Made by a program: the position numbers and the translations under genes. Source: a virus (taxonomy: Duplodnaviria > Caudoviricetes). From it: a stretch of DNA of 37,554 nucleotides. Where the stretch lies: positions 1-37,554 of IMG/VR virus record IMGVR_UViG_3300047545_000175; one strand, 5' to 3'. This document shows, in pieces, positions 1 to 37,554 of the stretch (the first letter of the stretch is position 1; each line of letters opens with the position of its first letter). The notes under the pieces were generated by a model. That model worked only from the letters and a program-made list of their open reading frames with translations, had not been told where the DNA came from and made no database searches.

Positions 1-25
1 AAAAAAAGGGGCCTGTCAAGCCCCT
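1..25 (-). terminator. Rho-independent terminator
   Basis: Minus strand AGGGGC-TTGACAG-GCCCCT followed by a T run, directly after the 30..398 stop codon. Confidence 0.75.
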
Positions 26-29
26 ATCT

Positions 30-398
30 TTAAAAAAGTTCAGTTTTCTTTCTAAACTTGTTCAGCATTTCCCTTACATGGTCAGGCATTGGGGCTGCTT
101 TCTTGGAATCTTGCTCGATCTTGACCAGCGCAGGGTCTTTGTAAACACTCACATTGACCATGATGTCAGGCACTTCAGCGCCATCCCACCGCATTTGGTT
201 GATGTAAACCAAGGGAGCTGGAATAAAAGCGCCGCTTTCCTTCTTCCAATCGTTAGTTGTTTTCATCCAGGTCACATGAGCAATGATCTGCTCGGCCTGA
301 GTGTCTAGCTTTAGTTTGTCCCATTTCGCTCTGCAAAGAGATTTAGCGCCCTTGCGTTGTGACTTAGGCCAAGCGTCCCAGAATTGTTCAAATGTCAT
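30..398 (-). CDS. Protein resembling the C-terminal domain of phage replication initiators (replisome organiser-like)
   Basis: FEQFWDAWPK..K..K and FIPAPLVYINQMRWD motifs; ATGA coupling with the upstream ORF. Confidence 0.6.
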   Translation of the reverse strand: MTFEQFWDAWPKSQRKGAKSLCRAKWDKLKLDTQAEQIIAHVTWMKTTNDWKKESGAFIPAPLVYINQMRWDGAEVPDIMVNVSVYKDPALVKIEQDSKKAAPMPDHVREMLNKFRKKTELF

Positions 399-622
399 TT
401 TGTGCCTTTCGGTGCTTTGCCAAAGTATTGTTTTGTTCCGTCTGGATTGTCTTTGCGCAACACTGTCCACAAGTGGTCACGTTCAAGACGAGACAGGCGA
501 CTATGGGGACTTGTTGTCGGCAGGTAACGGGCAATCTCCGCTGCTGTCGCCCCCTCCTTGCGCGACAGTATCAGCTTCAGTCGAGCCATTTGACTGGCTG
601 GTTTCTTGGACGTTGTTGACAT
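395..622 (-). CDS. Small winged helix-turn-helix protein
   Basis: GATAAEIARYL..SPHSRLSRLER plus beta-wing; all 12 differences from the second copy are synonymous third positions. Confidence 0.75.
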   Translation of the reverse strand: MSTTSKKPASQMARLKLILSRKEGATAAEIARYLPTTSPHSRLSRLERDHLWTVLRKDNPDGTKQYFGKAPKGTK

Positions 623-713
623 TTGACTTTCCTTTAGAAAAGATGGCATTCCATCGGTTTGAAAACTCCTCTGCGGATACAGAGAAGGGGCGAGAAACTG
701 AACCTTTGCTCAT
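501..713 (-). CDS. Small hypothetical protein; its C-terminal half overlaps the HTH gene
   Basis: ATGA coupling at 710-713; N-terminus MSKGS..RPFSVS.EEF..RW..IF looks like a small phage protein. Confidence 0.5.
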   Translation of the reverse strand: MSKGSVSRPFSVSAEEFSNRWNAIFSKGKSNVNNVQETSQSNGSTEADTVAQGGGDSSGDCPLPADNKSP

Positions 714-901
714 TTTGGCGATCTCCGAAAATCACGTTTCTTAGGTGTTGCATGGCCCACGTGGAAGAATCCACAATGCCCACAGCGATAAGCCTCCATT
801 GGGCTGTCTCTACGCCGACCAACAATGACTAAAGCCAGTTCTTTTGTTGGCAGCTTGTCCTTGCCTTCGCATTGGCTGCTTGCGTCTGTTGTGTATGTCA
901 T
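710..901 (-). CDS. Small zinc-finger-like protein
   Basis: YRCxxCxxxHVGH motif; ATGA coupled on both sides. Confidence 0.7.
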   Translation of the reverse strand: MTYTTDASSQCEGKDKLPTKELALVIVGRRRDSPMEAYRCGHCGFFHVGHATPKKRDFRRSPK

Positions 902-1320
902 GCTCGGCTATATGCAATCACTTGCACTGGTGTGTTGTAGTTGTTAGGCTTGCCCTTGTTCATGGACGCAGCAAGCTCTGCTTTGTTAAACAAGCCTTTG
1001 GCTGTTGACAGGTCAAAAGCATTGCCAGTTGATTTCTTTGTGCCACAAGGCCAAAACTCCGTCATGGAAACTTTCTTTTCAGACTCTTTGTTGTGTACAA
1101 ACTTTTTACCAGTCAAAACATAAAAATGATTGTTTTTGCTCGTTTTGCCGATGCGCTCAGACCTTTCCAGCTTGATGTAACCTTCATTCAGTAACTCATC
1201 TCTGATAAGTGCTGCACCAACATCAAAACGCCAAAGCATACGCTTGGAAATTTTGCGGTGATGGTCGTTGGTCTTTGCGAGTTGCTCAAGGTAAAACAAC
1301 TTAGCGAGTGATTTGCTCAA
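898..1320 (-). CDS. Hypothetical protein, possible winged-helix domain
   Basis: TTG start at 1320 preceded by AGGAG; ELLNEGYIKLER...YVLTGK resembles a wHTH wing. Confidence 0.6.
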   Translation of the reverse strand: MSKSLAKLFYLEQLAKTNDHHRKISKRMLWRFDVGAALIRDELLNEGYIKLERSERIGKTSKNNHFYVLTGKKFVHNKESEKKVSMTEFWPCGTKKSTGNAFDLSTAKGLFNKAELAASMNKGKPNNYNTPVQVIAYSRA

Positions 1321-20340: not shown

Positions 20341-22473
20341 TTAGGCGATGTCTGCGTCACCCAAGCAGAACGACACGGCGTGACGGACAGCCACGTCAAC
20401 CGACTGCATTGCAACGATACGGACAGTGCCAGTAGTCGAAGCAGTGTAGGGGTCAACCAGGATGTCCAAACCACCCCACATGCCGATCAGCAAGTCGGAG
20501 AAGTTACCGAAGTAAGCATCACCAGCAGCAACTTGGTTCGACACAATGGCGCGATAGCCGTTGATCTGACCGTCTTGCAGCACGAACTGACCAGAGCCGC
20601 TGTCTTTGGTAGTGGTCTTCAGAGCACCAGCCATCGAAGCGTTCATGATGTAGGCCAAGTTGCCCAACAGAGCGTTGTCGGTGGCAACTTCAGTCTCCAT
20701 GCCAACGATCTCAGCGAAAGTTGGGTTAGTGGCAGCGAAGTCTTTGGTGTTGATGCCAGAGGTGGCGCGGATACCAGTAGGCTGACCGTTAGAGCCAGTA
20801 CCAGCCAAAGCACCCAGGTCAATTGCCAAAGCCAGAGCTTGAGCCAAGTCGTTGCGGATCAGGCTTTCCACATCGGGCGAACCTTGCATCATCAACTGAC
20901 GAGTCACATCAGTGAAAGCGCCGACAGTCTTGGGAGCCATAGTGATCGAAGTGATCCCCATTTCGCTCTCAGCAGCAGCAGAGCCTTCAGCAAACCAGCC
21001 ACCAGACGAAGCAGAAGACTTCTTAGGAATCTTCACGTTGCCAGACAGACCAGTCAGCATGGTTGCACCAGCTTGCATCACGCTAGAAGCGTTACGCAGA
21101 ACGTCAACGAATGCGTCAGGACGGAAGTTCTGACCAACCAGACCAGCGTCATCAGAGCTGTTCAGGTCACGCTTGTCCCATTGACGCAGAACGTCAGCAG
21201 GAACCAAGATACCTTGAGCCGATTGACCGAAGGCGCGTTGAGCGGCTTCAGAGCACTCGAATTCAAAGGCAGCAGCACGTTGTGCGGCGCGGTCAGTAGG
21301 GTTAGCCAAGGCGTTGATAGCACGCATCAGGCTGAAGCGTTTAACTTCAGTCTTGCTCATACCAACTTCTTGCACGGGAGCGTCAAAAGCGCGGCTGTCA
21401 ACAGCCACTTGCACAGAGTTTTCCATTTTGGTTTCCTTTGGGGTTGCAACTTCAGTTTCCACGGCGCGGATTTCTTCAGTCACAGTTTCGGTAATTTGCG
21501 GTTCTTCAACCACAGCTTCAGAGATGACTTCCTCAAGATTTCGACCCACGCCTACGGTGACATCCGCAGGAATAGAAACGATACTTGCCTCCATCGGTCG
21601 CCACGCAACAGCGCGATATGTCCGACCGTCTTTTTCCTTCTGCATCTTGCCGATGGAATAGCCAATCGAGACATTACCGCGGATGTTGTCAGCAACATCA
21701 CCGTACACCTCTGAAGCCAATGCGCTCTTACCGAAACGCACTGTCGCCCGCAACTTGCGAGCCGAGCCATCGAGGGACACGGATTCAATCACCCCAATCT
21801 GCTTTTCAGGATCATGGTCCAGCAGCAGGGGTGCACGACCAGAGTTCAGAAAACTCAGGTCAATAGATTGTTCGGAGTGGTCAAGCACCTCGGAGCCATA
21901 AGAACGCTCCACAGGTGTCTCAGACGAGATTGCCATGCGAACACGGCGGTCATCTTCAACCACAGCTTCCATTGCGTCAGAGCGTGTCAGGCGTTGAGCC
22001 TCCCGGCGTTCTGCAACAACTTCTTCAGGAATAACGACTTCCTCAGAAATCACTTCCACAATTTCATCAGTAACGGGATTTTCCATCACAGACCTTTCAA
22101 GTTCGTCTGATTTTAACAACTCTTTTGTTTCAGGAATAGTGTTTTCTTCCATAGAGCGATCTGATTGGATTTTGGCATATTCTTTATCTGCCCAAGACTT
22201 ACCAGCATCACCACCCCAAAGTGACCACGCAATACGACCATTGGATGGATAACCTTCCTCGCCAGGACTGAAGCCTTCAGCCTGTTTATCAACTTCATGG
22301 CGAGCAAAGAAACTGACCATCCTGCCAATAGTGTCATCAGACAAGTCACGACCATTTACGATGTCTCTTGCTCGAGCAATGCCAACTTCTGTGCCGCCAC
22401 GACCAAACTCATCACGCCAGTCAAGACCGCGCTGTGCTTCTTCCTTCATTGACTGATTAGGCACTGGCATCAT
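20341..22473 (-). CDS. Fusion of an N-terminal domain, HK97-type prohead protease and major capsid protein
   Basis: SSETPVER, PLLLDHD, VSIGY, EASIVSIPAD protease motifs followed in frame by an HK97-fold capsid (APKTVGA, FGNFSDL). Confidence 0.9.
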   Translation of the reverse strand: MMPVPNQSMKEEAQRGLDWRDEFGRGGTEVGIARARDIVNGRDLSDDTIGRMVSFFARHEVDKQAEGFSPGEEGYPSNGRIAWSLWGGDAGKSWADKEYAKIQSDRSMEENTIPETKELLKSDELERSVMENPVTDEIVEVISEEVVIPEEVVAERREAQRLTRSDAMEAVVEDDRRVRMAISSETPVERSYGSEVLDHSEQSIDLSFLNSGRAPLLLDHDPEKQIGVIESVSLDGSARKLRATVRFGKSALASEVYGDVADNIRGNVSIGYSIGKMQKEKDGRTYRAVAWRPMEASIVSIPADVTVGVGRNLEEVISEAVVEEPQITETVTEEIRAVETEVATPKETKMENSVQVAVDSRAFDAPVQEVGMSKTEVKRFSLMRAINALANPTDRAAQRAAAFEFECSEAAQRAFGQSAQGILVPADVLRQWDKRDLNSSDDAGLVGQNFRPDAFVDVLRNASSVMQAGATMLTGLSGNVKIPKKSSASSGGWFAEGSAAAESEMGITSITMAPKTVGAFTDVTRQLMMQGSPDVESLIRNDLAQALALAIDLGALAGTGSNGQPTGIRATSGINTKDFAATNPTFAEIVGMETEVATDNALLGNLAYIMNASMAGALKTTTKDSGSGQFVLQDGQINGYRAIVSNQVAAGDAYFGNFSDLLIGMWGGLDILVDPYTASTTGTVRIVAMQSVDVAVRHAVSFCLGDADIA

Positions 22474-24538: not shown

Positions 24539-26389
24539 TTAACGCCATCTGTTCACAAAGCTACCCATATTTTTAGGTCGCTGAATTGGCTTTTGCTCTT
24601 TGACCACCTCTTGCGCCTCTTTTCGATGACTCATTTTCATAGCCAAGCTATTCAAATTGACATTCAATAGAGCCAAAGCAGCCTTTGCATACACACGAAC
24701 GTCAAGCGCCTCGTTTCTTGTCCTGATCTTTACAAACTCACGCCGAGCAAAACCTTTGTGGTATTTGATCTTGATCTTTTCAGCAGTAAGTTGCTTGTAA
24801 TACTCAGGATCGCGGCCTTCAGGAAAGTGACAGTAACCGGGTCCAGGCTCAGTGATCTTGAATCTTGAGAACAACTCAGCCTTCACCGTGTCAACCCCAA
24901 CAGGGAACAACTTGATCTTACCGATGTTGTTCTTAGATGGCTTGCCAACCATCGGCCTTCCCTCTCCACCTACACCCTTGATTGCAAAAACACGCTTGGC
25001 CTCTCGAGTCGAGACATATTTGTAAACAGCTTGGGTGTGATGACCACCAGAGTCAATGCAAGTAGCCCTGACAACCATTTCTTCACCAAATTCATGCTCA
25101 TACACTCCATAAAGAAACTCATCAAGCTCTCGCCAAACAATCGGTCCAGAGGGGTCGCCATGAATCGTCTTGTAGGCAATAGACCAAGATTCTTCCTCTT
25201 TACCCCAAGCAACAATCTCAGCCTCAAGTCGATCATCCTGAACGTCAACACCTGCCGTCAGAATAAGCCCGTCAGAAGGCACGACATCACCCCAGTCTTC
25301 TGCCCTCTCGGACAAAGAGTAATCATCAACGCCTTCACCGTCTTCTTCCCAAGTCTCAGCAAGGTACGTGTTAACCCAAACTCTCAAGGTCGAAGGTTGC
25401 TTTCTTGCCGCAAGGAAGTCTCGAACTGCGTCTTCCAAAGGAATCCAAGGCGAATACAGTCCAGAAACACAGAATCCAGCGGTCTTGGAGAATTTCTCAG
25501 TAGAGCGCCACTCACCGCGGCGAACAGCACGAGCGCGACTTGCATCATCCCAAATAGAGCCGCAAGACTCACAAGCATAACCAGCACTCTCAGGCCTATC
25601 AGCATCAAACTGAACTTGGCTCCATTTGAGCGTCTGCTCATGACCACAGTCATGGCAAGGAACGTAATAAAGCCGCTTGTCTGATTCTTCATACGCTTGC
25701 TCAATTCTTGAAGCACCCTTGTTTGTCGGGGTAGAGACAAGAATGATCTTGCGATTCCAGAATGTAGCCGAGCGTTTACGAGCCAGCGTTACTGGATCAC
25801 CCTCTGAGCCAGCCGATACAGGAAATCTGTCAACCTCGTCACACAAAACAATACGAATAGGACGGGAAGCAAGAGAAGCAGGACTGTTAGCCCCACAACC
25901 CGTAACGTGACCACCAGGGAAACTCTTATGCAAAGTAGTGTTGCCCGAATCCCGACTTCTAGGGTCTTTGACAAGACCTTGCAAAGCAGGAGTGTCACGT
26001 AACATAGGAGCCAAACGGTCTTTTGACCATGTTTGAGCCATGTCGAGCGTTGGTTGGACAACCAAGATAGGACTTGGGTCTTGGGCGATGTGGTATCCAA
26101 CGACATTATTCAAACACTCCGATTTACCCATCTGAGCGCCCATCATCAAGACAACTGTCTCAATCGCAGGGTCAGAGATAGCGTCCATGATCCCACGCTG
26201 GTACTCAGCTCGAGATGTCTTCCAAGAACCAGGTTCAGCAGAAGCCTCGGGACTTAACTTGCGAAAAGTATCAGCCCACTCACTGACCGTCAGCCTCGGC
26301 GGAGGTTTCAAACGCTTCCTCATCTGAGTCGAGATCGCTCTCCTCAGTGAGTCCTGCTGAATCCTCTTGATTGATTCCGGCAACTTCAT
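24539..26389 (-). CDS. terL: Terminase large subunit, lambda GpA family
   Basis: TVSEWAD, AQMGKSE Walker A, CDEVD Walker B, AGVDVQ, IDSGG, RNEALD; start codon uncertain. Confidence 0.95.
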   Translation of the reverse strand: MKLPESIKRIQQDSLRRAISTQMRKRLKPPPRLTVSEWADTFRKLSPEASAEPGSWKTSRAEYQRGIMDAISDPAIETVVLMMGAQMGKSECLNNVVGYHIAQDPSPILVVQPTLDMAQTWSKDRLAPMLRDTPALQGLVKDPRSRDSGNTTLHKSFPGGHVTGCGANSPASLASRPIRIVLCDEVDRFPVSAGSEGDPVTLARKRSATFWNRKIILVSTPTNKGASRIEQAYEESDKRLYYVPCHDCGHEQTLKWSQVQFDADRPESAGYACESCGSIWDDASRARAVRRGEWRSTEKFSKTAGFCVSGLYSPWIPLEDAVRDFLAARKQPSTLRVWVNTYLAETWEEDGEGVDDYSLSERAEDWGDVVPSDGLILTAGVDVQDDRLEAEIVAWGKEEESWSIAYKTIHGDPSGPIVWRELDEFLYGVYEHEFGEEMVVRATCIDSGGHHTQAVYKYVSTREAKRVFAIKGVGGEGRPMVGKPSKNNIGKIKLFPVGVDTVKAELFSRFKITEPGPGYCHFPEGRDPEYYKQLTAEKIKIKYHKGFARREFVKIRTRNEALDVRVYAKAALALLNVNLNSLAMKMSHRKEAQEVVKEQKPIQRPKNMGSFVNRWR

Positions 26390-26834
26390 TTAGAGCCTCA
26401 TAGATAGCATCGTCAAGGATGCCTTTGATTTCTTTGATGTCTTTTGCAGTGTAGACAAGTCCAGCCACCTTTGACGGGATAGACAACATCTTGGCACGGA
26501 AGTTCGATAGCTGCTCACCAATCTCGTCAGCAACTCGCTCGATCTCCACAACCCTGCCCTGCTCCTTCAAGAGTTCTAGCTCTGCCATGCCAGCCTCTGC
26601 CGCCATCTTACGCCGTTTTCCCTCCTCGAGGTCAATAGCGTCTTGGTTGCCAATCAGGTCGCCAACCTTCTTGCGCTCCATCCAAGCAATCACATCAGAA
26701 GTTTCGTAGTCCGAACCACCCCTTCCCTTGCGCTTGTTCAAGATAGGAAAGGTACTGTCTTTCTGCATCTGCGTCAGCCACTCCTCAGAGCGACCAATGA
26801 TGTCAGCCAGTTGCTTCTTGTTAACAATCATCAC
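26280..26834 (-). CDS. terS: Terminase small subunit (Nu1-like)
   Basis: VNKKQLADIIG wHTH N-terminus; AEAGMAELEL coiled coil; overlaps TerL. Confidence 0.88.
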   Translation of the reverse strand: MMIVNKKQLADIIGRSEEWLTQMQKDSTFPILNKRKGRGGSDYETSDVIAWMERKKVGDLIGNQDAIDLEEGKRRKMAAEAGMAELELLKEQGRVVEIERVADEIGEQLSNFRAKMLSIPSKVAGLVYTAKDIKEIKGILDDAIYEALNEVAGINQEDSAGLTEESDLDSDEEAFETSAEADGQ

Positions 26835-27028: not shown

Positions 27029-27072
27029 GGGGGTGCGAATAACCCTCAATCGCCGTTTGGCCCAGAGGACCC
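27029..27072 (-). other. Predicted cos site (cosQ plus cosN)
   Basis: Minus strand GGGTCCT (identical to lambda cosQ), then about 20 bp later the dyad GGGT-TATTCGC-ACCC, about 200 bp upstream of terS. Confidence 0.7.
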
Positions 27073-27077
27073 GCGAA

Positions 27078-27196
27078 TGTGGATAACTTCGGCCATTTCG
27101 CGCAAAAACTGTGGATAACTTTGCAGATTTTGGCCCGAATCGCTCGAATCGCCAGGTTGTTCACAGGTTGAATACAGGTTATCCACAAAATCCACA
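27078..27196. promoter_or_regulatory. DnaA-box cluster (left)
   Basis: Perfect TTATCCACA at 27078(-), 27110(-) and 27179(+); degenerate boxes at 27157 and 27188; CAGGTT repeated every 11 bp. Confidence 0.75.
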
Positions 27197-27430
27197 TAAT
27201 CCGCCCCCGTTTTGCGAGTTGGTTTTCTCCCTGGCGTTTGATTGATAACCCCGACTTAATCCCCGCCCGGTTTGGTTGTCGTTGTCGGTTGGTTTGGCCC
27301 CAGCTGATCCCCGGGTTGTTGCATGCCCGGTTGTTTGCCCCGTTTGGGGCCATTGGCGGGGCGATTGTTTGCACCTATATAAGACAACCCAGGCGGGTCA
27401 ACCCAGCTGCACCCTAACTGTACAAAATTA

Positions 27431-27450
27431 CATTAGGGTTTGTCCCTATA
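27431..27450. promoter_or_regulatory. Operator-like palindrome
   Basis: TAGGG-TTTGT-CCCTA; shares CATTAGGGTTTGT with 1517. Confidence 0.55.
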
Positions 27451-27523
27451 GAATTTTTTGTGGACAACTGCGACATTTGATGCACGGGTTGACGTTGGCC
27501 CGGGTCATTTGTAGGGGTTGATC

Positions 27524-27691
27524 ATGTTTCATCAAATTTTTGTCGGGTTAATTTGCGCGTTTGGGGTTGTTTTGTTTGCTATTGGCGCGCTGGGTTTGGC
27601 ATTGGGCATCGGCCCGGTTTTTATGTCGTTGGCAATGGCAATTATTGGCGGGTTTGCTGCAATTGGTTTTTCTGGTTTGCTGGGGGATTGA
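27524..27691 (+). CDS. 55-aa two-TM membrane protein (not in ORF track)
   Basis: GGGG RBS; MFHQIFVGLICAFGVVLFAIGALGLALGIGPVFMSLAMAIIGGFAAIGFSGLLGD. Confidence 0.6.
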   Translation: MFHQIFVGLICAFGVVLFAIGALGLALGIGPVFMSLAMAIIGGFAAIGFSGLLGD

Positions 27692-27693
27692 TC

Positions 27694-27894
27694 ATGTTTT
27701 TCATTTTTGACTGCGACAACAACATTGTGGGCAATCCTAAGGGTTACAAAACGCACCGGGGCGCGCAAACACAATGCAACTTGGACAAAAGCAAACCAAC
27801 CAAAACGATGTCACTTTTGTGGGATCGATTCCACGCAAAAGCCCAATTGACCGGGGTCAAAAGCCGAATTTATTCGATCCGCTGGGTTGACTGA
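27694..27894 (+). CDS. 66-aa hypothetical protein
   Basis: GGGG RBS; MFFIFDCDNNIVGNPKGYKTHRGA... Confidence 0.7.
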   Translation: MFFIFDCDNNIVGNPKGYKTHRGAQTQCNLDKSKPTKTMSLLWDRFHAKAQLTGVKSRIYSIRWVD

Positions 27895-27916
27895 AAAACA
27901 CAATAGGAGAAAACAA

Positions 27917-28789
27917 ATGCAAATTAAATCATTCAAAAACGCACCTAAGTTTGCAAAGTTGCAGCAATTAGCAATTGCCGTGCAAACGGGGGATGATCAT
28001 GTTATCGCCCGTGCTTTGCTTCAATTGCAGTGTGACCCGGACTTTTCCGGCCCGGGTTGGCAAACCAACTTGAACAAATTGGCAAACGTGTTTGCTAGCA
28101 AAGCCCCCGTTTTTGCCGTGTTTGCGCTGGGGGGAAATAGTAAATTGCCGTTTGTATCGTTTTCCACTATTCCCGGGGTCACATGCCCCGGGGCGGGGGA
28201 TTGCATCACGTTTTGCTATTCCTATAGGGCTTGGCGATTTCCGGCCGCATTTGCGCGCATGATCCAAAACGCCTATTTGATGCGGTTTGCCCCGGATCAA
28301 ATAGCTATAGCGTTTGCAGCGATTGCAGCAAAACGGCCCGGGGGGTTTGATTTCCGTTTGTACGTTGATGGGGATTTTGCAACCGGGGCCGATGTAGCGT
28401 TTTGGATGTCGTTATTAGCATTAACCCCGGGCGCACGTGCATACGGGTATAGCAAATCTTTTCATGCATTGCTGGGGTTTGACGTTGTCGGGGTTTGGCC
28501 CACAAACTATCAACTTAACATTTCCGGGGGTCACAATGCCCCGCAAACGGTTGTTGATGCGGTTAAGCAATTGCCGATCACCCGGGGGGAATTTATCGCG
28601 GTTTCGATTGGGCGCAAAGTAAAAAGCACGGATCATGGCACCCCCAGCACGAACGCTGCAATCCGGGCCAAATTTCCGGGGGTCAAGGTTTTCCCGTGCC
28701 CGGGGGAATGCGGTACATGTACGGGGGCGGGGCATGCATGCGGTTTGCCCAAAATGAAAAACCGCGTTATCGCGATTGCAATGCACTAA
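27917..28789 (+). CDS. GP88-like Cys-cluster (radical-SAM-like) protein
   Basis: AGGAG RBS; GNSKL, TCPGAGDCITFCYS, RLYVDGDF, YGYSKS, CPGECGTC....HACG. Confidence 0.7.
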   Translation: MQIKSFKNAPKFAKLQQLAIAVQTGDDHVIARALLQLQCDPDFSGPGWQTNLNKLANVFASKAPVFAVFALGGNSKLPFVSFSTIPGVTCPGAGDCITFCYSYRAWRFPAAFARMIQNAYLMRFAPDQIAIAFAAIAAKRPGGFDFRLYVDGDFATGADVAFWMSLLALTPGARAYGYSKSFHALLGFDVVGVWPTNYQLNISGGHNAPQTVVDAVKQLPITRGEFIAVSIGRKVKSTDHGTPSTNAAIRAKFPGVKVFPCPGECGTCTGAGHACGLPKMKNRVIAIAMH

Positions 28790-28800
28790 TGGGGCCAACA

Positions 28801-28974
28801 ATGACCAATCAACAAATTTGCGATTTTTACGACAACAACCCAAACCTTACATTAGCCCAATTAGCGCAAATGCTGCGTTTGTCGGTTGACCAACTAAAAA
28901 CAATCCTACAAACCCCGCCCCCCGTGCAAACGTACGGGAGAAACCGGGGCCGATCCAACAACTACAGGGGATGA
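28801..28974 (+). CDS. Small HTH-like protein
   Basis: GGGG RBS; YDNNPNLTLAQLAQMLRLSVDQLKTIL. Confidence 0.65.
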   Translation: MTNQQICDFYDNNPNLTLAQLAQMLRLSVDQLKTILQTPPPVQTYGRNRGRSNNYRG

Positions 28975-28976
28975 TC

Positions 28977-29198
28977 ATGGGCAAATTTTCTGACATCGAT
29001 TTAGAATTGACGTACGGGGCAAAACCAACAACAACCCCCCGGGTTGGATCTTTTGGGGTTTGTTTGCATGATCCCAACAACCCGCCCCGGTTTTTTACGT
29101 TGTTGCAGCTGATTGGAAATATTGGGTTGTTCGCCCCGGTTGATGACCCAGGATCCATCCTACAATTTGACGTTTGCGATTATTGGGAATTGACGTAA
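28977..29198 (+). CDS. 73-aa hypothetical protein
   Basis: GGGGATGATC-ATG start; followed immediately by a terminator. Confidence 0.6.
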   Translation: MGKFSDIDLELTYGAKPTTTPRVGSFGVCLHDPNNPPRFFTLLQLIGNIGLFAPVDDPGSILQFDVCDYWELT

Positions 29199-29199
29199 A

Positions 29200-29240
29200 A
29201 CCAAAAAGCCCCCGGGTAAAACTGGGGTTTTTTTGGCTTT
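29200..29240 (+). terminator. Rho-independent terminator of the island operon
   Basis: CCAAAAAGCCCCCGG-GTAAAA-CTGGGGTTTTTTTGG. Confidence 0.75.
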
Positions 29241-29263
29241 GCTAAGTAAGTGAGCGCACACTT

Positions 29264-29700
29264 CAGATTTTGGCCCGTTTGCGGGGTTGTTTGGGTTTTG
29301 CTGGGGATTGGCCCGGGTTGGTTGTTTGGCCCGTTTGCGGGGCGATTGGCCCCCAGCGATTGGGCGATTGTTTGGGCGGGGGTTTGGCCCCGGTTGGTTT
29401 GGCGGGTTTGATTGGCCCGGGGTTTTGCTGGGGTTTGATCCCTGATTGTTTGTTTGGCCCCGGTTGATTGATTCGGGCGGGGTTGATGCAATTGGGGCGG
29501 GTTTGGCCCGATTGGTTGATCCGGTTTGCTGGGGCGATTGGCGGGGCATTGCAGCGATTGGGGCGGGTTGGTTTGTGGGTTGACCCCCGACAATTGGCCC
29601 GTTTTGGGTTTAGTTGGGGTCAAATTTTGCGGGTTTATCGGTTGGGGTTGTCGGGTTGGTTGTCGGGTTATATGATAATCGCCCCGATAATCGGCCAATA
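29264..29700. repeat. G/T-rich low-complexity non-coding tract
   Basis: Very few A on the + strand; recurring TTGGCCC, GGCGATTG and GGCGGG words. Confidence 0.7.
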
Positions 29701-29725
29701 TCGGTTTTGGCTGCGTTTGGTCAGG

Positions 29726-29930
29726 TTTTCCACATAATCCTGTGGATTTTCTGTGGAAATGCCGGTTTTCTGTGGACATTTTGCGGTTTTCTCGGCGGTA
29801 CCTGTGGACAACCTGTGTAAAGCCTGTGGATCGATCTGTATAACCTGTGAACAAGCCAAAAATGGCAAATCGAGCCAGAAATTCCCAAATTTTCCCCTAT
29901 AAAGTGCCCGTACCAAAATTTTGTGGAAGT
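29726..29930. promoter_or_regulatory. DnaA-box-like cluster (right)
   Basis: TTTTCCACA at 29726; TGTG(G)A-type boxes at 29741, 29752, 29771, 29803, 29814, 29825, 29846, 29922. Confidence 0.65.
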
Positions 29931-29970: not shown

Positions 29971-30780
29971 TCAGTACCAGCGAGTTCCCTTGACTGTTGT
30001 GTCAAGAGTTCTCTGAATGAAGTTTTCTCTTGCTTGAGCTAACTTGAGTGGAAACTGGTCTTTTGCTGTCTTTTCTGCCACGCCGTAGAAGTCGTAGCGT
30101 TTGCGATAACTTGCCTTGGGTGCAAAGAACATGACTGGCTTGATTGCCGAGCCAAATGCTGTCTTGTATCGCGCCCAGATGCCTGACTTCAAATGCTGGA
30201 CTTTTTCTCCTGTCTTCCAGCTACCTTGTCCAACCCGTGATTCGCCCTTGCGAGCCACAAAATATCTGGCTTTGTAGTTCTGCTTGAGATTACGGGCTTT
30301 GGACTTCTTTGTCTCGTTCTGCTGCGATCCAGACAGGTAGAACGCCTGAAGCTGCGACAGAATTTCGACAATTTGGCTGGGAGACATATTCCCGTAGGAA
30401 TTTCGTCTTACCCCTGAGCCTGGTGCTGGAACTGTGATTTCGTTTGTACCGAGTACGCCAATACGTCTGAGCATGAACTCAAAACGCTTTTGTGGACGGT
30501 TTCCACCGTGTATTTGGGGTAACAGGTAATGGAAGTTGCTGTCTGAGTTCTTGACCGCAACGTAAGCCTCAATTTTCGCCAATGTTGCGTATCGGTAGAA
30601 GATGCTGTTCAGGGTGTATCGAGTTGGTCTGTCGAACACCTTAGTCATCTCTGCTCTTTGGGCATCCCTGATCTCAAATGCTGTTTTGTTGAGTGCAGAC
30701 ACAAAAGCAGATACTTGGCCCTTCTGAATCTTCTTCAGGGCAGTCTTTACTGATGAGATGTTGGAGCCAAGTTCAAGCAT
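29971..30780 (-). CDS. Putative neck/tail-completion protein (HK97 gp10 / lambda Z-like)
   Basis: ALNKTA...VFDRPT.YTLNS motif; basic; YRKRYDFY near the C-terminus. Confidence 0.6.
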   Translation of the reverse strand: MLELGSNISSVKTALKKIQKGQVSAFVSALNKTAFEIRDAQRAEMTKVFDRPTRYTLNSIFYRYATLAKIEAYVAVKNSDSNFHYLLPQIHGGNRPQKRFEFMLRRIGVLGTNEITVPAPGSGVRRNSYGNMSPSQIVEILSQLQAFYLSGSQQNETKKSKARNLKQNYKARYFVARKGESRVGQGSWKTGEKVQHLKSGIWARYKTAFGSAIKPVMFFAPKASYRKRYDFYGVAEKTAKDQFPLKLAQARENFIQRTLDTTVKGTRWY

Positions 30781-36290: not shown

Positions 36291-36333
36291 CAATTATACA
36301 GTATAAAAAAAGGGGCCTGTCAAGCCCCTATCT

Positions 36334-36702
36334 TTAAAAAAGTTCAGTTTTCTTTCTAAACTTGTTCAGCATTTCCCTTACATGGTCAGGCATTGGGGCT
36401 GCTTTCTTGGAATCTTGCTCGATCTTGACCAATGCGGGGTCTTTGTAAACACTCACGTTGACCGTAATCTCAGGAACTTCAGCGCCATCCCACCGCATTT
36501 GGTTGATGTAAACCAAAGGAGCTGGAATAAAAGCGCCGCTTTCCTTCTTCCAATCATTAGTTGTTTTCATCCAGGTCACATGAGCAATGATCTGCTCGGC
36601 CTGAGTGTCTAGCTTTAGTTTGTCCCATTTCGCTTTGCAAAGAGATTTAGCGCCCTTGCGTTGTGACTTAGGCCAAGCGTCCCAGAATTGTTCAAATGTC
36701 AT
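36334..36702 (-). CDS. Second copy of the replication-initiator-like protein
   Basis: Allele of 30..398. Confidence 0.6.
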   Translation of the reverse strand: MTFEQFWDAWPKSQRKGAKSLCKAKWDKLKLDTQAEQIIAHVTWMKTTNDWKKESGAFIPAPLVYINQMRWDGAEVPEITVNVSVYKDPALVKIEQDSKKAAPMPDHVREMLNKFRKKTELF

Positions 36703-36926
36703 TTTGTGCCTTTCGGTGCTTTGCCAAAGTATTGTTTGGTTCCGTCTGGATTGTCTTTTCGCAACACTGTCCACAAGTGGTCACGCTCAAGGCGAGACAG
36801 GCGACTATGAGGGCTTGTTGTCGGCAGGTAGCGGGCTATCTCCGCCGCTGTCGCTCCCTCCTTGCGTGACAGTATCAGTTTCAGTCGAGCCATTTGACTG
36901 GCTGGTTTCTTGGACGTTGTTGACAT
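36699..36926 (-). CDS. Second copy of the small wHTH protein
   Basis: Protein identical to 395..622. Confidence 0.75.
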   Translation of the reverse strand: MSTTSKKPASQMARLKLILSRKEGATAAEIARYLPTTSPHSRLSRLERDHLWTVLRKDNPDGTKQYFGKAPKGTK

Positions 36927-37017
36927 TTGACTTTCCTTTAGAAAAGATGGCATTCCATCGGTTTGAAAACTCCTCTGAGGATACAGAGAAGGGGCGAGAA
37001 ACTGAACCTTTGCTCAT
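36805..37017 (-). CDS. Second copy of the small hypothetical protein
   Basis: Allele of 501..713. Confidence 0.5.
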   Translation of the reverse strand: MSKGSVSRPFSVSSEEFSNRWNAIFSKGKSNVNNVQETSQSNGSTETDTVTQGGSDSGGDSPLPADNKPS

Positions 37018-37205
37018 TTTGGCGATCTCCGAAAATCACGTTTCTTAGGCGTTGCATGGCCTACATGAAAAAATCCACAATGCACACAGCGATAAGCCTC
37101 CATTGGGCTGTCTCTACGCCGACCAACAATGACTAAAGCCAGTTCTTTTGTTGGCAGCTTGTCTTTGCCTTCGCATTGGCTGCTTACGTCTGTTGTGTAT
37201 GTCAT
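37014..37205 (-). CDS. Second copy of the zinc-finger-like protein
   Basis: Allele of 710..901. Confidence 0.7.
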   Translation of the reverse strand: MTYTTDVSSQCEGKDKLPTKELALVIVGRRRDSPMEAYRCVHCGFFHVGHATPKKRDFRRSPK

Positions 37206-37554
37206 GCTCGGCTATATGCAATGATTTGCACTGGTGTGTTGTAGTTGTTAGGCTTGCCCTTATTAATGGACGCAGCAAGTTCAGCTTTGTTAAACAAGCC
37301 CTTAGCTGTTGAAAGATCAAAAGCATTGCCTGTTGATTTCTTTGTGCCACAAGGCCAAAACTCCGTCATGGAAACTTTATTTTCAGACTCTTTGTTGTGT
37401 ACAAACTTTTTACCAGTCAAAACATAGAAATGATTGTTTTTGCTCGTTTTGCCGATGCGCTCAGACCTTTCCAGCTTGATGTAACCTTCATTCAGTAACT
37501 CATCTCTGATAAGTGCTGCACCAACATCAAAACGCCAAAGCATACGCTTGGAAA
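37202..37554 (-). CDS. Second copy (5'-truncated by window end) of 898..1320
   Basis: Allele of 898..1320. Confidence 0.6.
   Translation of the reverse strand, partial: SKRMLWRFDVGAALIRDELLNEGYIKLERSERIGKTSKNNHFYVLTGKKFVHNKESENKVSMTEFWPCGTKKSTGNAFDLSTAKGLFNKAELAASINKGKPNNYNTPVQIIAYSRA

Follow-up and report, generated by a model that had tools for sequence, protein, structure and literature searches.

Genes and features of the locus

The DNA analysed here, called the window, is the 37,554-nucleotide (nt) stretch of the Caudoviricetes virus record IMGVR_UViG_3300047545_000175 of IMG/VR. Close to its terminase genes lies an island (27195-29790) in which the word GAG and its complement CTC are almost absent, while six-base palindromes that are scarce in the remainder of the genome (the body) are kept. 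The island carries a gene, GP88, whose product belongs to the family PF17338. The genome is of the siphophage type and lambda-like, with a gpA terminase, a Nu1-like small terminase subunit (terS) and a portal of the lambda family, and the sequencing runs that contain the whole window are freshwater metagenomes, which may be its source. The island forms one plus-strand unit made up of open reading frames (ORFs) of 55 and 66 amino acids (aa), GP88, and ORFs of 57 and 73 aa, closed by a terminator and followed by a low-complexity spacer. The features are given below; related loci carry L numbers.

24539-26389, minus strand: terminase large subunit (terL) of the gpA type; PF05876 and PF20454, E about 1e-94
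26280-26834, minus strand: terS, Nu1-like; phrog_57 with E 3e-31, PF07471 weak; transcribed away from the island
27030-27046, minus strand: putative fixed DNA end (cos or packaging start) just upstream of terS; conserved motif at which contigs start
27078-27200, no strand: left cluster of DnaA-box-like repeats with 3 strict matches, between the DNA end and the island
27524-27691, plus strand: ORF1, 55 aa, very hydrophobic, predicted small membrane protein; 78-82% nt identity in L001, L002, L004, L005 and L017
27694-27894, plus strand: ORF2, 66 aa; weak match (27%) in L007, without a Pfam or PHROG match
27917-28789, plus strand: GP88, 290 aa, PF17338; 0 GAG/CTC, only 2 glutamates (Glu), 17 body-forbidden palindromes
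28801-28974, plus strand: ORF4, 57 aa; identity 83-100% in L001-L003, L005 and L017, 41% in L010
28977-29198, plus strand: ORF5, 73 aa; identity 65-88% in five loci, no family match found
29204-29237, plus strand: terminator-like hairpin closing the plus-strand unit; stem 29210-29227 with a T run
29240-29711, no strand: non-coding G/T-rich low-complexity spacer of island-type words; similar spacer in L001-L003, L005, L017 and L149
29726-29856, no strand: right cluster of DnaA-box-like repeats, inverted relative to 27148-27179 (32 nt, 75%)
29971-30780, minus strand: phrog_1924 gene, nearest body gene on the right side of the island; in GP88-less relatives it abuts the end motif

Word composition of the island

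Composition was counted over 27232-29790. GAG was found only at 27907, 28938 and 29252 and CTC not at all, exactly the three copies given in the first-pass annotation, which had also put the uniform expectation at about 80; base composition gave 81.1. The expectation was 15.9 from dinucleotides and 64.2 from the rate of the remaining window, and the Poisson probability of three copies was 6e-31 (bases), 1e-4 (dinucleotides) and 6e-24 (remaining window). Base composition alone thus does not account for the depletion. Nor is it equal across the genome, since equal-sized windows outside the island held at least 39 copies (median 61). AGA/TCT was depleted as well, although the count was 12 (6 on each strand) and not the roughly 10 first reported. 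The GC content of the island was ordinary, 0.51.

Relative to expectation, the dinucleotides AG/CT stood at 0.34 and GA/TC at 0.58, with AA/TT at 1.72 and CC/GG at 1.45, and the skew was similar in the coding and non-coding parts of the island and on both strands. AG preceded by A, C or G was depleted and TAG was spared (36 vs. 37.4 expected). The depletion was graded by context, being stronger for GAG than for AAG and CAG, with GAAC at 0.14, GAGT and GAGG at 0, AAGA at 0.08 and CAGA at 0.18; TAG contexts were kept or raised (TAGC 1.14, TAGG 1.81). Word diversity was low, with 853 distinct 6-mers vs. 1258±38. Within the GP88 gene, GAG counted 0 vs. 18±4 and AG 39 vs. 92±7 under synonymous nulls. 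These and the composition nulls rejected base composition, codon usage and amino-acid constraint as the cause. Clade-1 GP88 proteins have 1-2 Glu residues; loss of Glu as a general effect of islands was rejected (median 6 vs. 7 Glu in island and non-island GP88, p 0.69).

The depletion of GAG, AAG, AGG and GGA could in principle reflect protospacer-adjacent motifs (PAMs) of CRISPR systems, Shine-Dalgarno-like pause sites or ultraviolet (UV) hot spots, each relevant only before early gene expression. This explanation is scarcely credible and is largely refuted by the strand symmetry and the enrichment of TT: CTC on the coding strand was as depleted as GAG, contrary to a cause acting on RNA, and TT stood at 1.22, contrary to UV damage. 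Moreover, values of 0.85 for ATG, 0.96 for TAG and 2.05 for CC/GG are unlike the type I-E and I-F PAMs, and the palindromes described below would be left unexplained.

Island borders and the DNA end

A log-odds Markov model, trained on six relatives only with the window left out, placed the borders at 27195-29711, and no 500-nt stretch elsewhere was positive. The depletion has sharp borders, and GAG/CTC is missing from the intervals between 27229 and 27907 and between 29254 and 29791.

Among terL-relative contigs, 26 of 79 start at the conserved end motif (window 27044), and for this reason the end at 27044 was taken as fixed; L019 starts at window 27044 and L020 at 27043. The island starts 150-190 bp from this motif, on the side away from terS. 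In lambda, the terS-distal side is packaged last and ejected first. Because the island starts beside a fixed end adjoining terS, it is by analogy with this polarity likely to be ejected first. All four runs examined were contigs, in which the ends of molecules are not visible. The island was single copy in the assembly and contigs ended at the terS-island junction, i.e., there is no long terminal repeat. RNA run X3 covers the island, though DNA may be present in it; in run X4 the two flanks are covered and 27268-29642, at 90%, is not, which counts as evidence for nothing.

The DnaA-box-like clusters were scored against the DnaA box consensus. The window has four strict boxes, all of them on the flanks of the island; the closest relatives are without the right cluster, and the GP88-less L042 also has boxes at the end motif. 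Its cluster lies upstream of terS, and the phages with such clusters are of several unrelated types. Clusters near the packaging end, partly with 11-bp spacing, were also seen in L009 (-1073 to -951), L012 (-603 to -351) and L013 (-634 to -562), in positions relative to GP88. To the right of the island, at its border, L001, L002, L003, L005, L017 and L149 share a conserved motif that is about 50 nt long and ends in an A/T tract; its version in the window is faint, near 29870-29900. The gpA relatives L059, L079, L082 and L086 have a ParB-like gene (and, by eye, a methylase-like one) between the end motif and terS. A GAG-poor stretch on the terS side of L086 was considered as an island and rejected as an AT-rich insertion.

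Reciprocal palindrome pattern of island and body

Palindromes were indeed abundant in the island (GATC 17, CCGG 33, GGCC 22, CCCGGG 13), as the first-pass annotation had noted when it set aside classical type II site avoidance. That judgement holds for the island but not for the remaining genome, where avoidance of the type II kind was extreme: the body (33.4 kb) had 4.7 six-base palindromes per kb (observed/expected 0.33-0.42) and was without 33 of the 64 types, among them AAGCTT (25 expected), TGATCA (21), CAGCTG (20) and TGGCCA (20). The island had 23.4 per kb, including 36 sites of the types absent from the body. Of all the observations, this contrast is the most puzzling. Some palindromes were still rare in the pooled islands (GGTACC 0.07, GGGCCC 0.05, TGCGCA 0.14). 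The body was also without CGACG/CGTCG (0 vs. 23 expected), GGCACC, CGTCTC and AGATCC, which resemble type II sites.

The exemption of the island from palindrome avoidance would be explained if the entering leader were transiently single-stranded or otherwise non-duplex. Type IIP enzymes could then not cut it, and a reader of single-stranded DNA or a mutator (DarT-like, or a deaminase) would remove CT and TC words. Levels of 0.33 for CT, 0.59 for TC and 0.14 for TCTC, with a rise of CC and TT, fit this account, and plasmid leaders enter as single-stranded DNA and resist restriction (PMC3874165). Nevertheless, the purge was equal on both strands, CTA/TAG was spared and island contigs continue into the body unbroken. 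Folding was unremarkable (lowest z -2.1 vs. trinucleotide shuffles), and an Rfam search of the island for structured RNA gave one chance match (E 0.51). The TCT/TNTC target of a DarT-type toxin, one of the causes first proposed for the purge, was not supported, as such motifs were not depleted as a class (TATC at 0.69, TGTC at 0.77, TTTC at 0.87 and TTT at 1.65 of the body rate). A single-stranded leader is therefore quite unlikely as the cause.

Distribution over GP88 loci and terminase relatives

Loci from a first search (18) and the best 80 of 334 GP88 loci were merged to 80, several of them near-identical. The tree had 76 rows with 68 different proteins, and 74 loci (73 and the window) had enough flank for comparison of the inside with the flanks. 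GAG was lower inside than in the flanks in 73 of the 74 loci, and under half in 51, with both strands affected (GAG 0.36, CTC 0.31). The most depleted trimer was GAG/CTC in 32 loci and CAG/CTG in 14. Palindromes were higher inside in 72 of the 74 (median 21.5 vs. 7.5 per kb), and their rise tracked the loss of GAG (rho -0.72). The purge was stronger where the body avoided palindromes more strongly (rho 0.40 over 74 loci, among which kin are not independent). The islands of L016, L018, L108, L156 and L104 were most depleted in GAC/GTC and ACT/AGT, and GATC was 5.9-fold enriched in L016.

Most of the GP88 tree (45-93% identity) shows the GAG purge, and a general AG purge was seen only in the clade of the window (8 rows). 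A terminase large subunit was located within 6.5 kb upstream, on the opposite strand, in 35 of the 48 GP88 loci scanned; these terminases fall into four other PHROG families, with best matches phrog_2, phrog_9, phrog_38 and phrog_979. The remaining 13 comprise two loci with the same family as two of the 35, nine with a virion gene and two with no match. GP88 was found in 0 of 79 gpA-terminase loci, and the eight with at least 4.7 kb upstream have no island. Relative to GP88-less relatives the island is an insertion, and the cassette passes between backbones of the gpA and HK97-like types with 84-88% identity. In L004, L017, L002 and L003 an HNH packaging gene is located within the island and is purged there. 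L002 and L017 start at one identical site, which L004 places between terS and this HNH gene, purged to 27 AG/kb vs. 124 AG/kb in terL.

Synonymous changes among close relatives

Synonymous gains were counted among six close relatives in GP88 and terL, the set of body-absent palindromes being defined on the body of the window. GAG gains in GP88 were suppressed (5 vs. 16.7 expected, p 5e-4) and those in terL were not (37 vs. 35.3 expected). Gains of body-absent palindromes were suppressed in terL, 2 vs. 23.9 expected. These tests cannot tell selection from a local mutation bias.

They bear on the alternative that the cassette was imported recently and still shows the composition of its donor, a phage in which GAG is purged over the whole genome. 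The insertion of the island relative to GP88-less relatives, and its sharing by different backbones at high identity, would be expected of an import. However, the signature is shared by most of the GP88 tree, gains of GAG continue to be suppressed, and the HNH gene, a backbone gene, took on the signature where it lies within the island. Furthermore, type IIP sites should vanish fast after an import, yet 13-18 per 870 nt persist in the six relatives. Recent import is therefore very unlikely.

The GP88 protein

GP88 scored 56.6 bits against PF17338, well above the gathering cut-off of 24.4, and 70 of 70 alignment members matched the family. The cysteines C90-x5-C96-x3-C100 and C265/C268/C275 were invariant in 146 sequences. 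PF17338 was the only Pfam match, with none to Radical_SAM, and a sequence search of the PDB returned nothing. The structural model had a predicted local distance difference test score (pLDDT) of 96.8. Among 48,161 chains in a VIA search, the top 12 rows were all radical S-adenosylmethionine (SAM) enzymes, including spore photoproduct lyase (Z 8.9, root-mean-square deviation 4.3, 206 residues aligned), viperin (Z 7.9) and QueE (Z 6.8). The predicted fold of GP88 is a radical-SAM-like barrel, Z scores of this size indicating a type of fold and not a function. The SAM lyase family was not among the Pfam, PDB-sequence or fold matches, an absence that does not exclude membership.

The family is large, with 1,405 relatives at 90% clustering. 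Gene 88 of mycobacteriophage L5 is a homologue (E 1e-12) located 1.9-2.6 kb from the right end. In cultured phages, tblastn gave only weak matches, in 2 and 4 records. GP88 was also found in 12 contigs of metagenome-assembled genomes, the closest of which (76%) was binned as Polynucleobacter, too weak a link for naming a host. A literature search in which subscription journals were poorly covered found no paper describing a GP88 function; papers on phage leaders were found, none of them on a reciprocal release of palindromes.

An alternative is that the cassette avoids its own target. According to this explanation, the leader has a shield against ordinary restriction, which leaves its palindromes free, and the purge is a defence against a DNA-modifying or DNA-damaging activity of the cassette that recognizes a short motif. 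GP88 would be the most likely source of this activity, whose targets would be host DNA or the body as it enters later. The island goes with GP88 over unrelated backbones and is missing without it; spore photoproduct lyase, the closest solved fold, acts on DNA; and a word of 2-3 bases is short for restriction avoidance. On the other hand, the purge is graded, GP88 keeping 39 AG where 3 are unavoidable, and the depleted words differ among close relatives of GP88 (GAG, CAG, AG, GAC/ACT). In addition, a body marked at AG should keep AG-containing palindromes safe, yet AAGCTT, CAGCTG, CTGCAG and AGATCT were each found 0 times vs. 25, 20, 13 and 12 expected. No methyltransferase or base-modifying gene was found among the ORFs scanned, and an island is missing in one GP88 clade whose cysteines are intact. 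Taken together, these observations make self-target avoidance unlikely.

Interpretation of the purge

The explanation that we favour, with a probability of about 0.5, is that the island is a first-ejected leader purged of the cores of asymmetric N6-methyladenine sites recognized by type I, IIG, III and bacteriophage exclusion (BREX) systems, and that GP88 is likely a blocker of SAM-dependent systems. The argument starts from the composition, the borders, the tie to GP88 and the terminase end, and the suppressed synonymous GAG gains. If the polarity of lambda applies, the island would be packaged last and ejected first. Many type I, IIG, III and BREX readers would share AG-containing cores, so that the purge would be diffuse and collapse to 3-mers. 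GP88 would be a putative anti-defence activity, lowering SAM or blocking SAM-dependent enzymes. SAM-independent type IIP enzymes would then stay active, and for this reason the body would avoid palindromes. The leader is exempt from that pressure and would need a second protection during entry. Purging of a first-ejected leader accounts for where the island lies and for its tie to GP88, as well as for a graded purge of both strands that leaves few distinct words. It also accounts for a body in which avoidance is limited to type II-like sites.

Trimer depletion was compared with text counts in Table S4 of Blow 2016 (PMC4752239), which lists 848 motifs (28 of 32 trimer classes; the counts include names and palindromic motifs). 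The counts were 109 for cag, 68 for gag, 40 for aag and 22 for tag (3 of these in headings); TAG, the word spared in the island, is thus the lowest of the four AG trimers. The overall agreement of missing words with published motifs was only weak, with rho -0.23 and p 0.24 in the window. Across loci, the correlation was significant in 0 of 14 and positive in L010 and L016. Avoidance of asymmetric site cores, as proposed in the first-pass annotation, is accordingly supported in part: it fits the graded context pattern, the location at a genome end and the scarcity of synonymous gains, but the motif correlation is weak. Methylomes of Polynucleobacter and of Lake Biwa (PMC7522526, PMC6329791) held one type I motif, too rare for testing.

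Several further observations weigh, like the weak motif correlation, against the favoured explanation. Most directly, it fails to explain the free type IIP sites in the leader, and phage T5 does not survive an EcoRI site in its leader (PMC12455610). Gains of body-absent palindromes were not suppressed in GP88 (6 vs. 7.8 expected). In a toy model, selection against asymmetric words raised palindromes to 20-25 per kb only if these were cost-free, and they fell to 9 per kb once costly; the model also fails to reproduce the homopolymer excess. CGA is common in motifs, yet it is enriched in the islands of L002 and L017. HNH homologues (43% identical) in L113-L115 lie between terS and the island, outside the latter, and are not purged; position alone therefore does not set the border. 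For the gpA lineage, no contig end was found on the island side, and only the terS-side end was seen in gpA relatives. Regarding GP88 itself, the canonical radical SAM motif CxxxCxxC is not present, its place being taken by C-x5-C-x3-C, and Foldseek against the PDB gave nothing at E<=0.001. Finally, the clade without an island (9 tree rows) has the same cysteines intact. Its members are L121, L122, L134, L136, L137, L139, L140, L141 and L161; palindrome avoidance in their flanks is weaker (7-12 per kb), and they form a natural control.

Relation to known leader systems

Murciavirus phages provide a close parallel, as a type I restriction-modification system with the motif AGAG-N6-GTG restricts only their first-injected segment, and an early protector has been proposed (PMC12455610). 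As in that leader, the segment described here is at a fixed genome end, and the motif contains words that are lost here. However, Murciavirus is T7-like and its case concerns one motif and one host, whereas the purge here extends over 2.5 kb and down to 3-mers; the parts of the account covered contain no reciprocal palindrome pattern and no mention of GP88.

A second parallel is the first-step transfer of T5 and BF23, in which sites matter in the leader only and the border of the leader is non-coding and repeat-rich, with DnaA boxes (PMC10644984). Unlike the present genome, T5 has terminal repeats of 10 kb. The T5 leader must lack type II palindromes and its body is tolerant (PMC10644984), which is the opposite of the palindrome densities of island and body reported above. 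The system thus resembles known leader-restricted site avoidance but departs from T5 in its palindromes and its lack of terminal repeats. What is new is the reciprocal pattern, with GAG purged and palindromes kept in the leader vs. a palindrome-poor body.

The T3 gene 0.3 SAM lyase and T7 Ocr are first-expressed proteins that block type I and BREX systems, and the SAM lyase leaves type II enzymes such as EcoRV active (10.1101/2023.02.27.530186). The same source gives the BREX sites GGTAAG and TAGGAG and describes type I and BREX systems as SAM-dependent and EcoRV as SAM-independent. GP88 differs from the T3 enzyme in its predicted radical-SAM-like fold, its seven conserved cysteines and its Pfam match to GP88 alone. 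Leading regions of plasmids likewise come in first, carry anti-defence genes and have a composition of their own, but they enter single-stranded and are depleted of palindromes in some groups (10.1101/2025.04.03.647016), whereas palindromes are released here. The L5 gene shares with GP88 a homologous core, a CX5-6CX3C motif and a position near the genome end opposite the terminase; unlike the island of the window, L5 shows only a mild dip of GAG/CTC (0.69 in the last 3.2 kb) and no release of palindromes.

A broader and rather doubtful proposal is that widespread aquatic phages have two zones, a GP88 leader immune to type IIP enzymes but open to asymmetric-site systems and a body with the reverse properties. 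This would imply an undescribed shielding of the first 2-3 kb, and GP88 would represent a new radical-SAM class of anti-defence proteins extending from freshwater phages to mycobacteriophage L5. The present analysis gives the GP88 family a testable function. Avoidance of type I/III-like sites is said to be uncommon in whole-genome analyses (PMC12455610); it may nevertheless be strong within a segment of just 2-3 kb. That the leader escapes palindrome avoidance runs counter to the T5 paradigm and suggests an as yet undescribed feature of DNA entry. Moreover, the two-zone signature of low GAG and high palindromes could serve as a simple marker by which the ends of uncultured phage genomes and their candidate anti-defence genes are located.

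Other observations

ORF1 (27524-27691), which leads the cassette, could have a role in DNA entry or superinfection exclusion. A scan of the region for sigma-70 promoters gave 3 sites vs. 3.1 expected. A 42-nt element with a short hairpin (27417-27458) recurs in L003, L007 and L102, on different backbones and in either orientation; its candidacy as a promoter was dropped when a looser pattern proved too unspecific. In the body, positions 20341-22473 encode a fused head protein of 710 aa, in which an N-terminal extension is followed by prohead protease and capsid domains. The two ends of the window (1-1250 and 36305-37554) repeat about 1.25 kb of a replication-initiator region with scattered differences, which suggests that the map is circular, with a length of about 36.3 kb, and that the assembly mixes strains.

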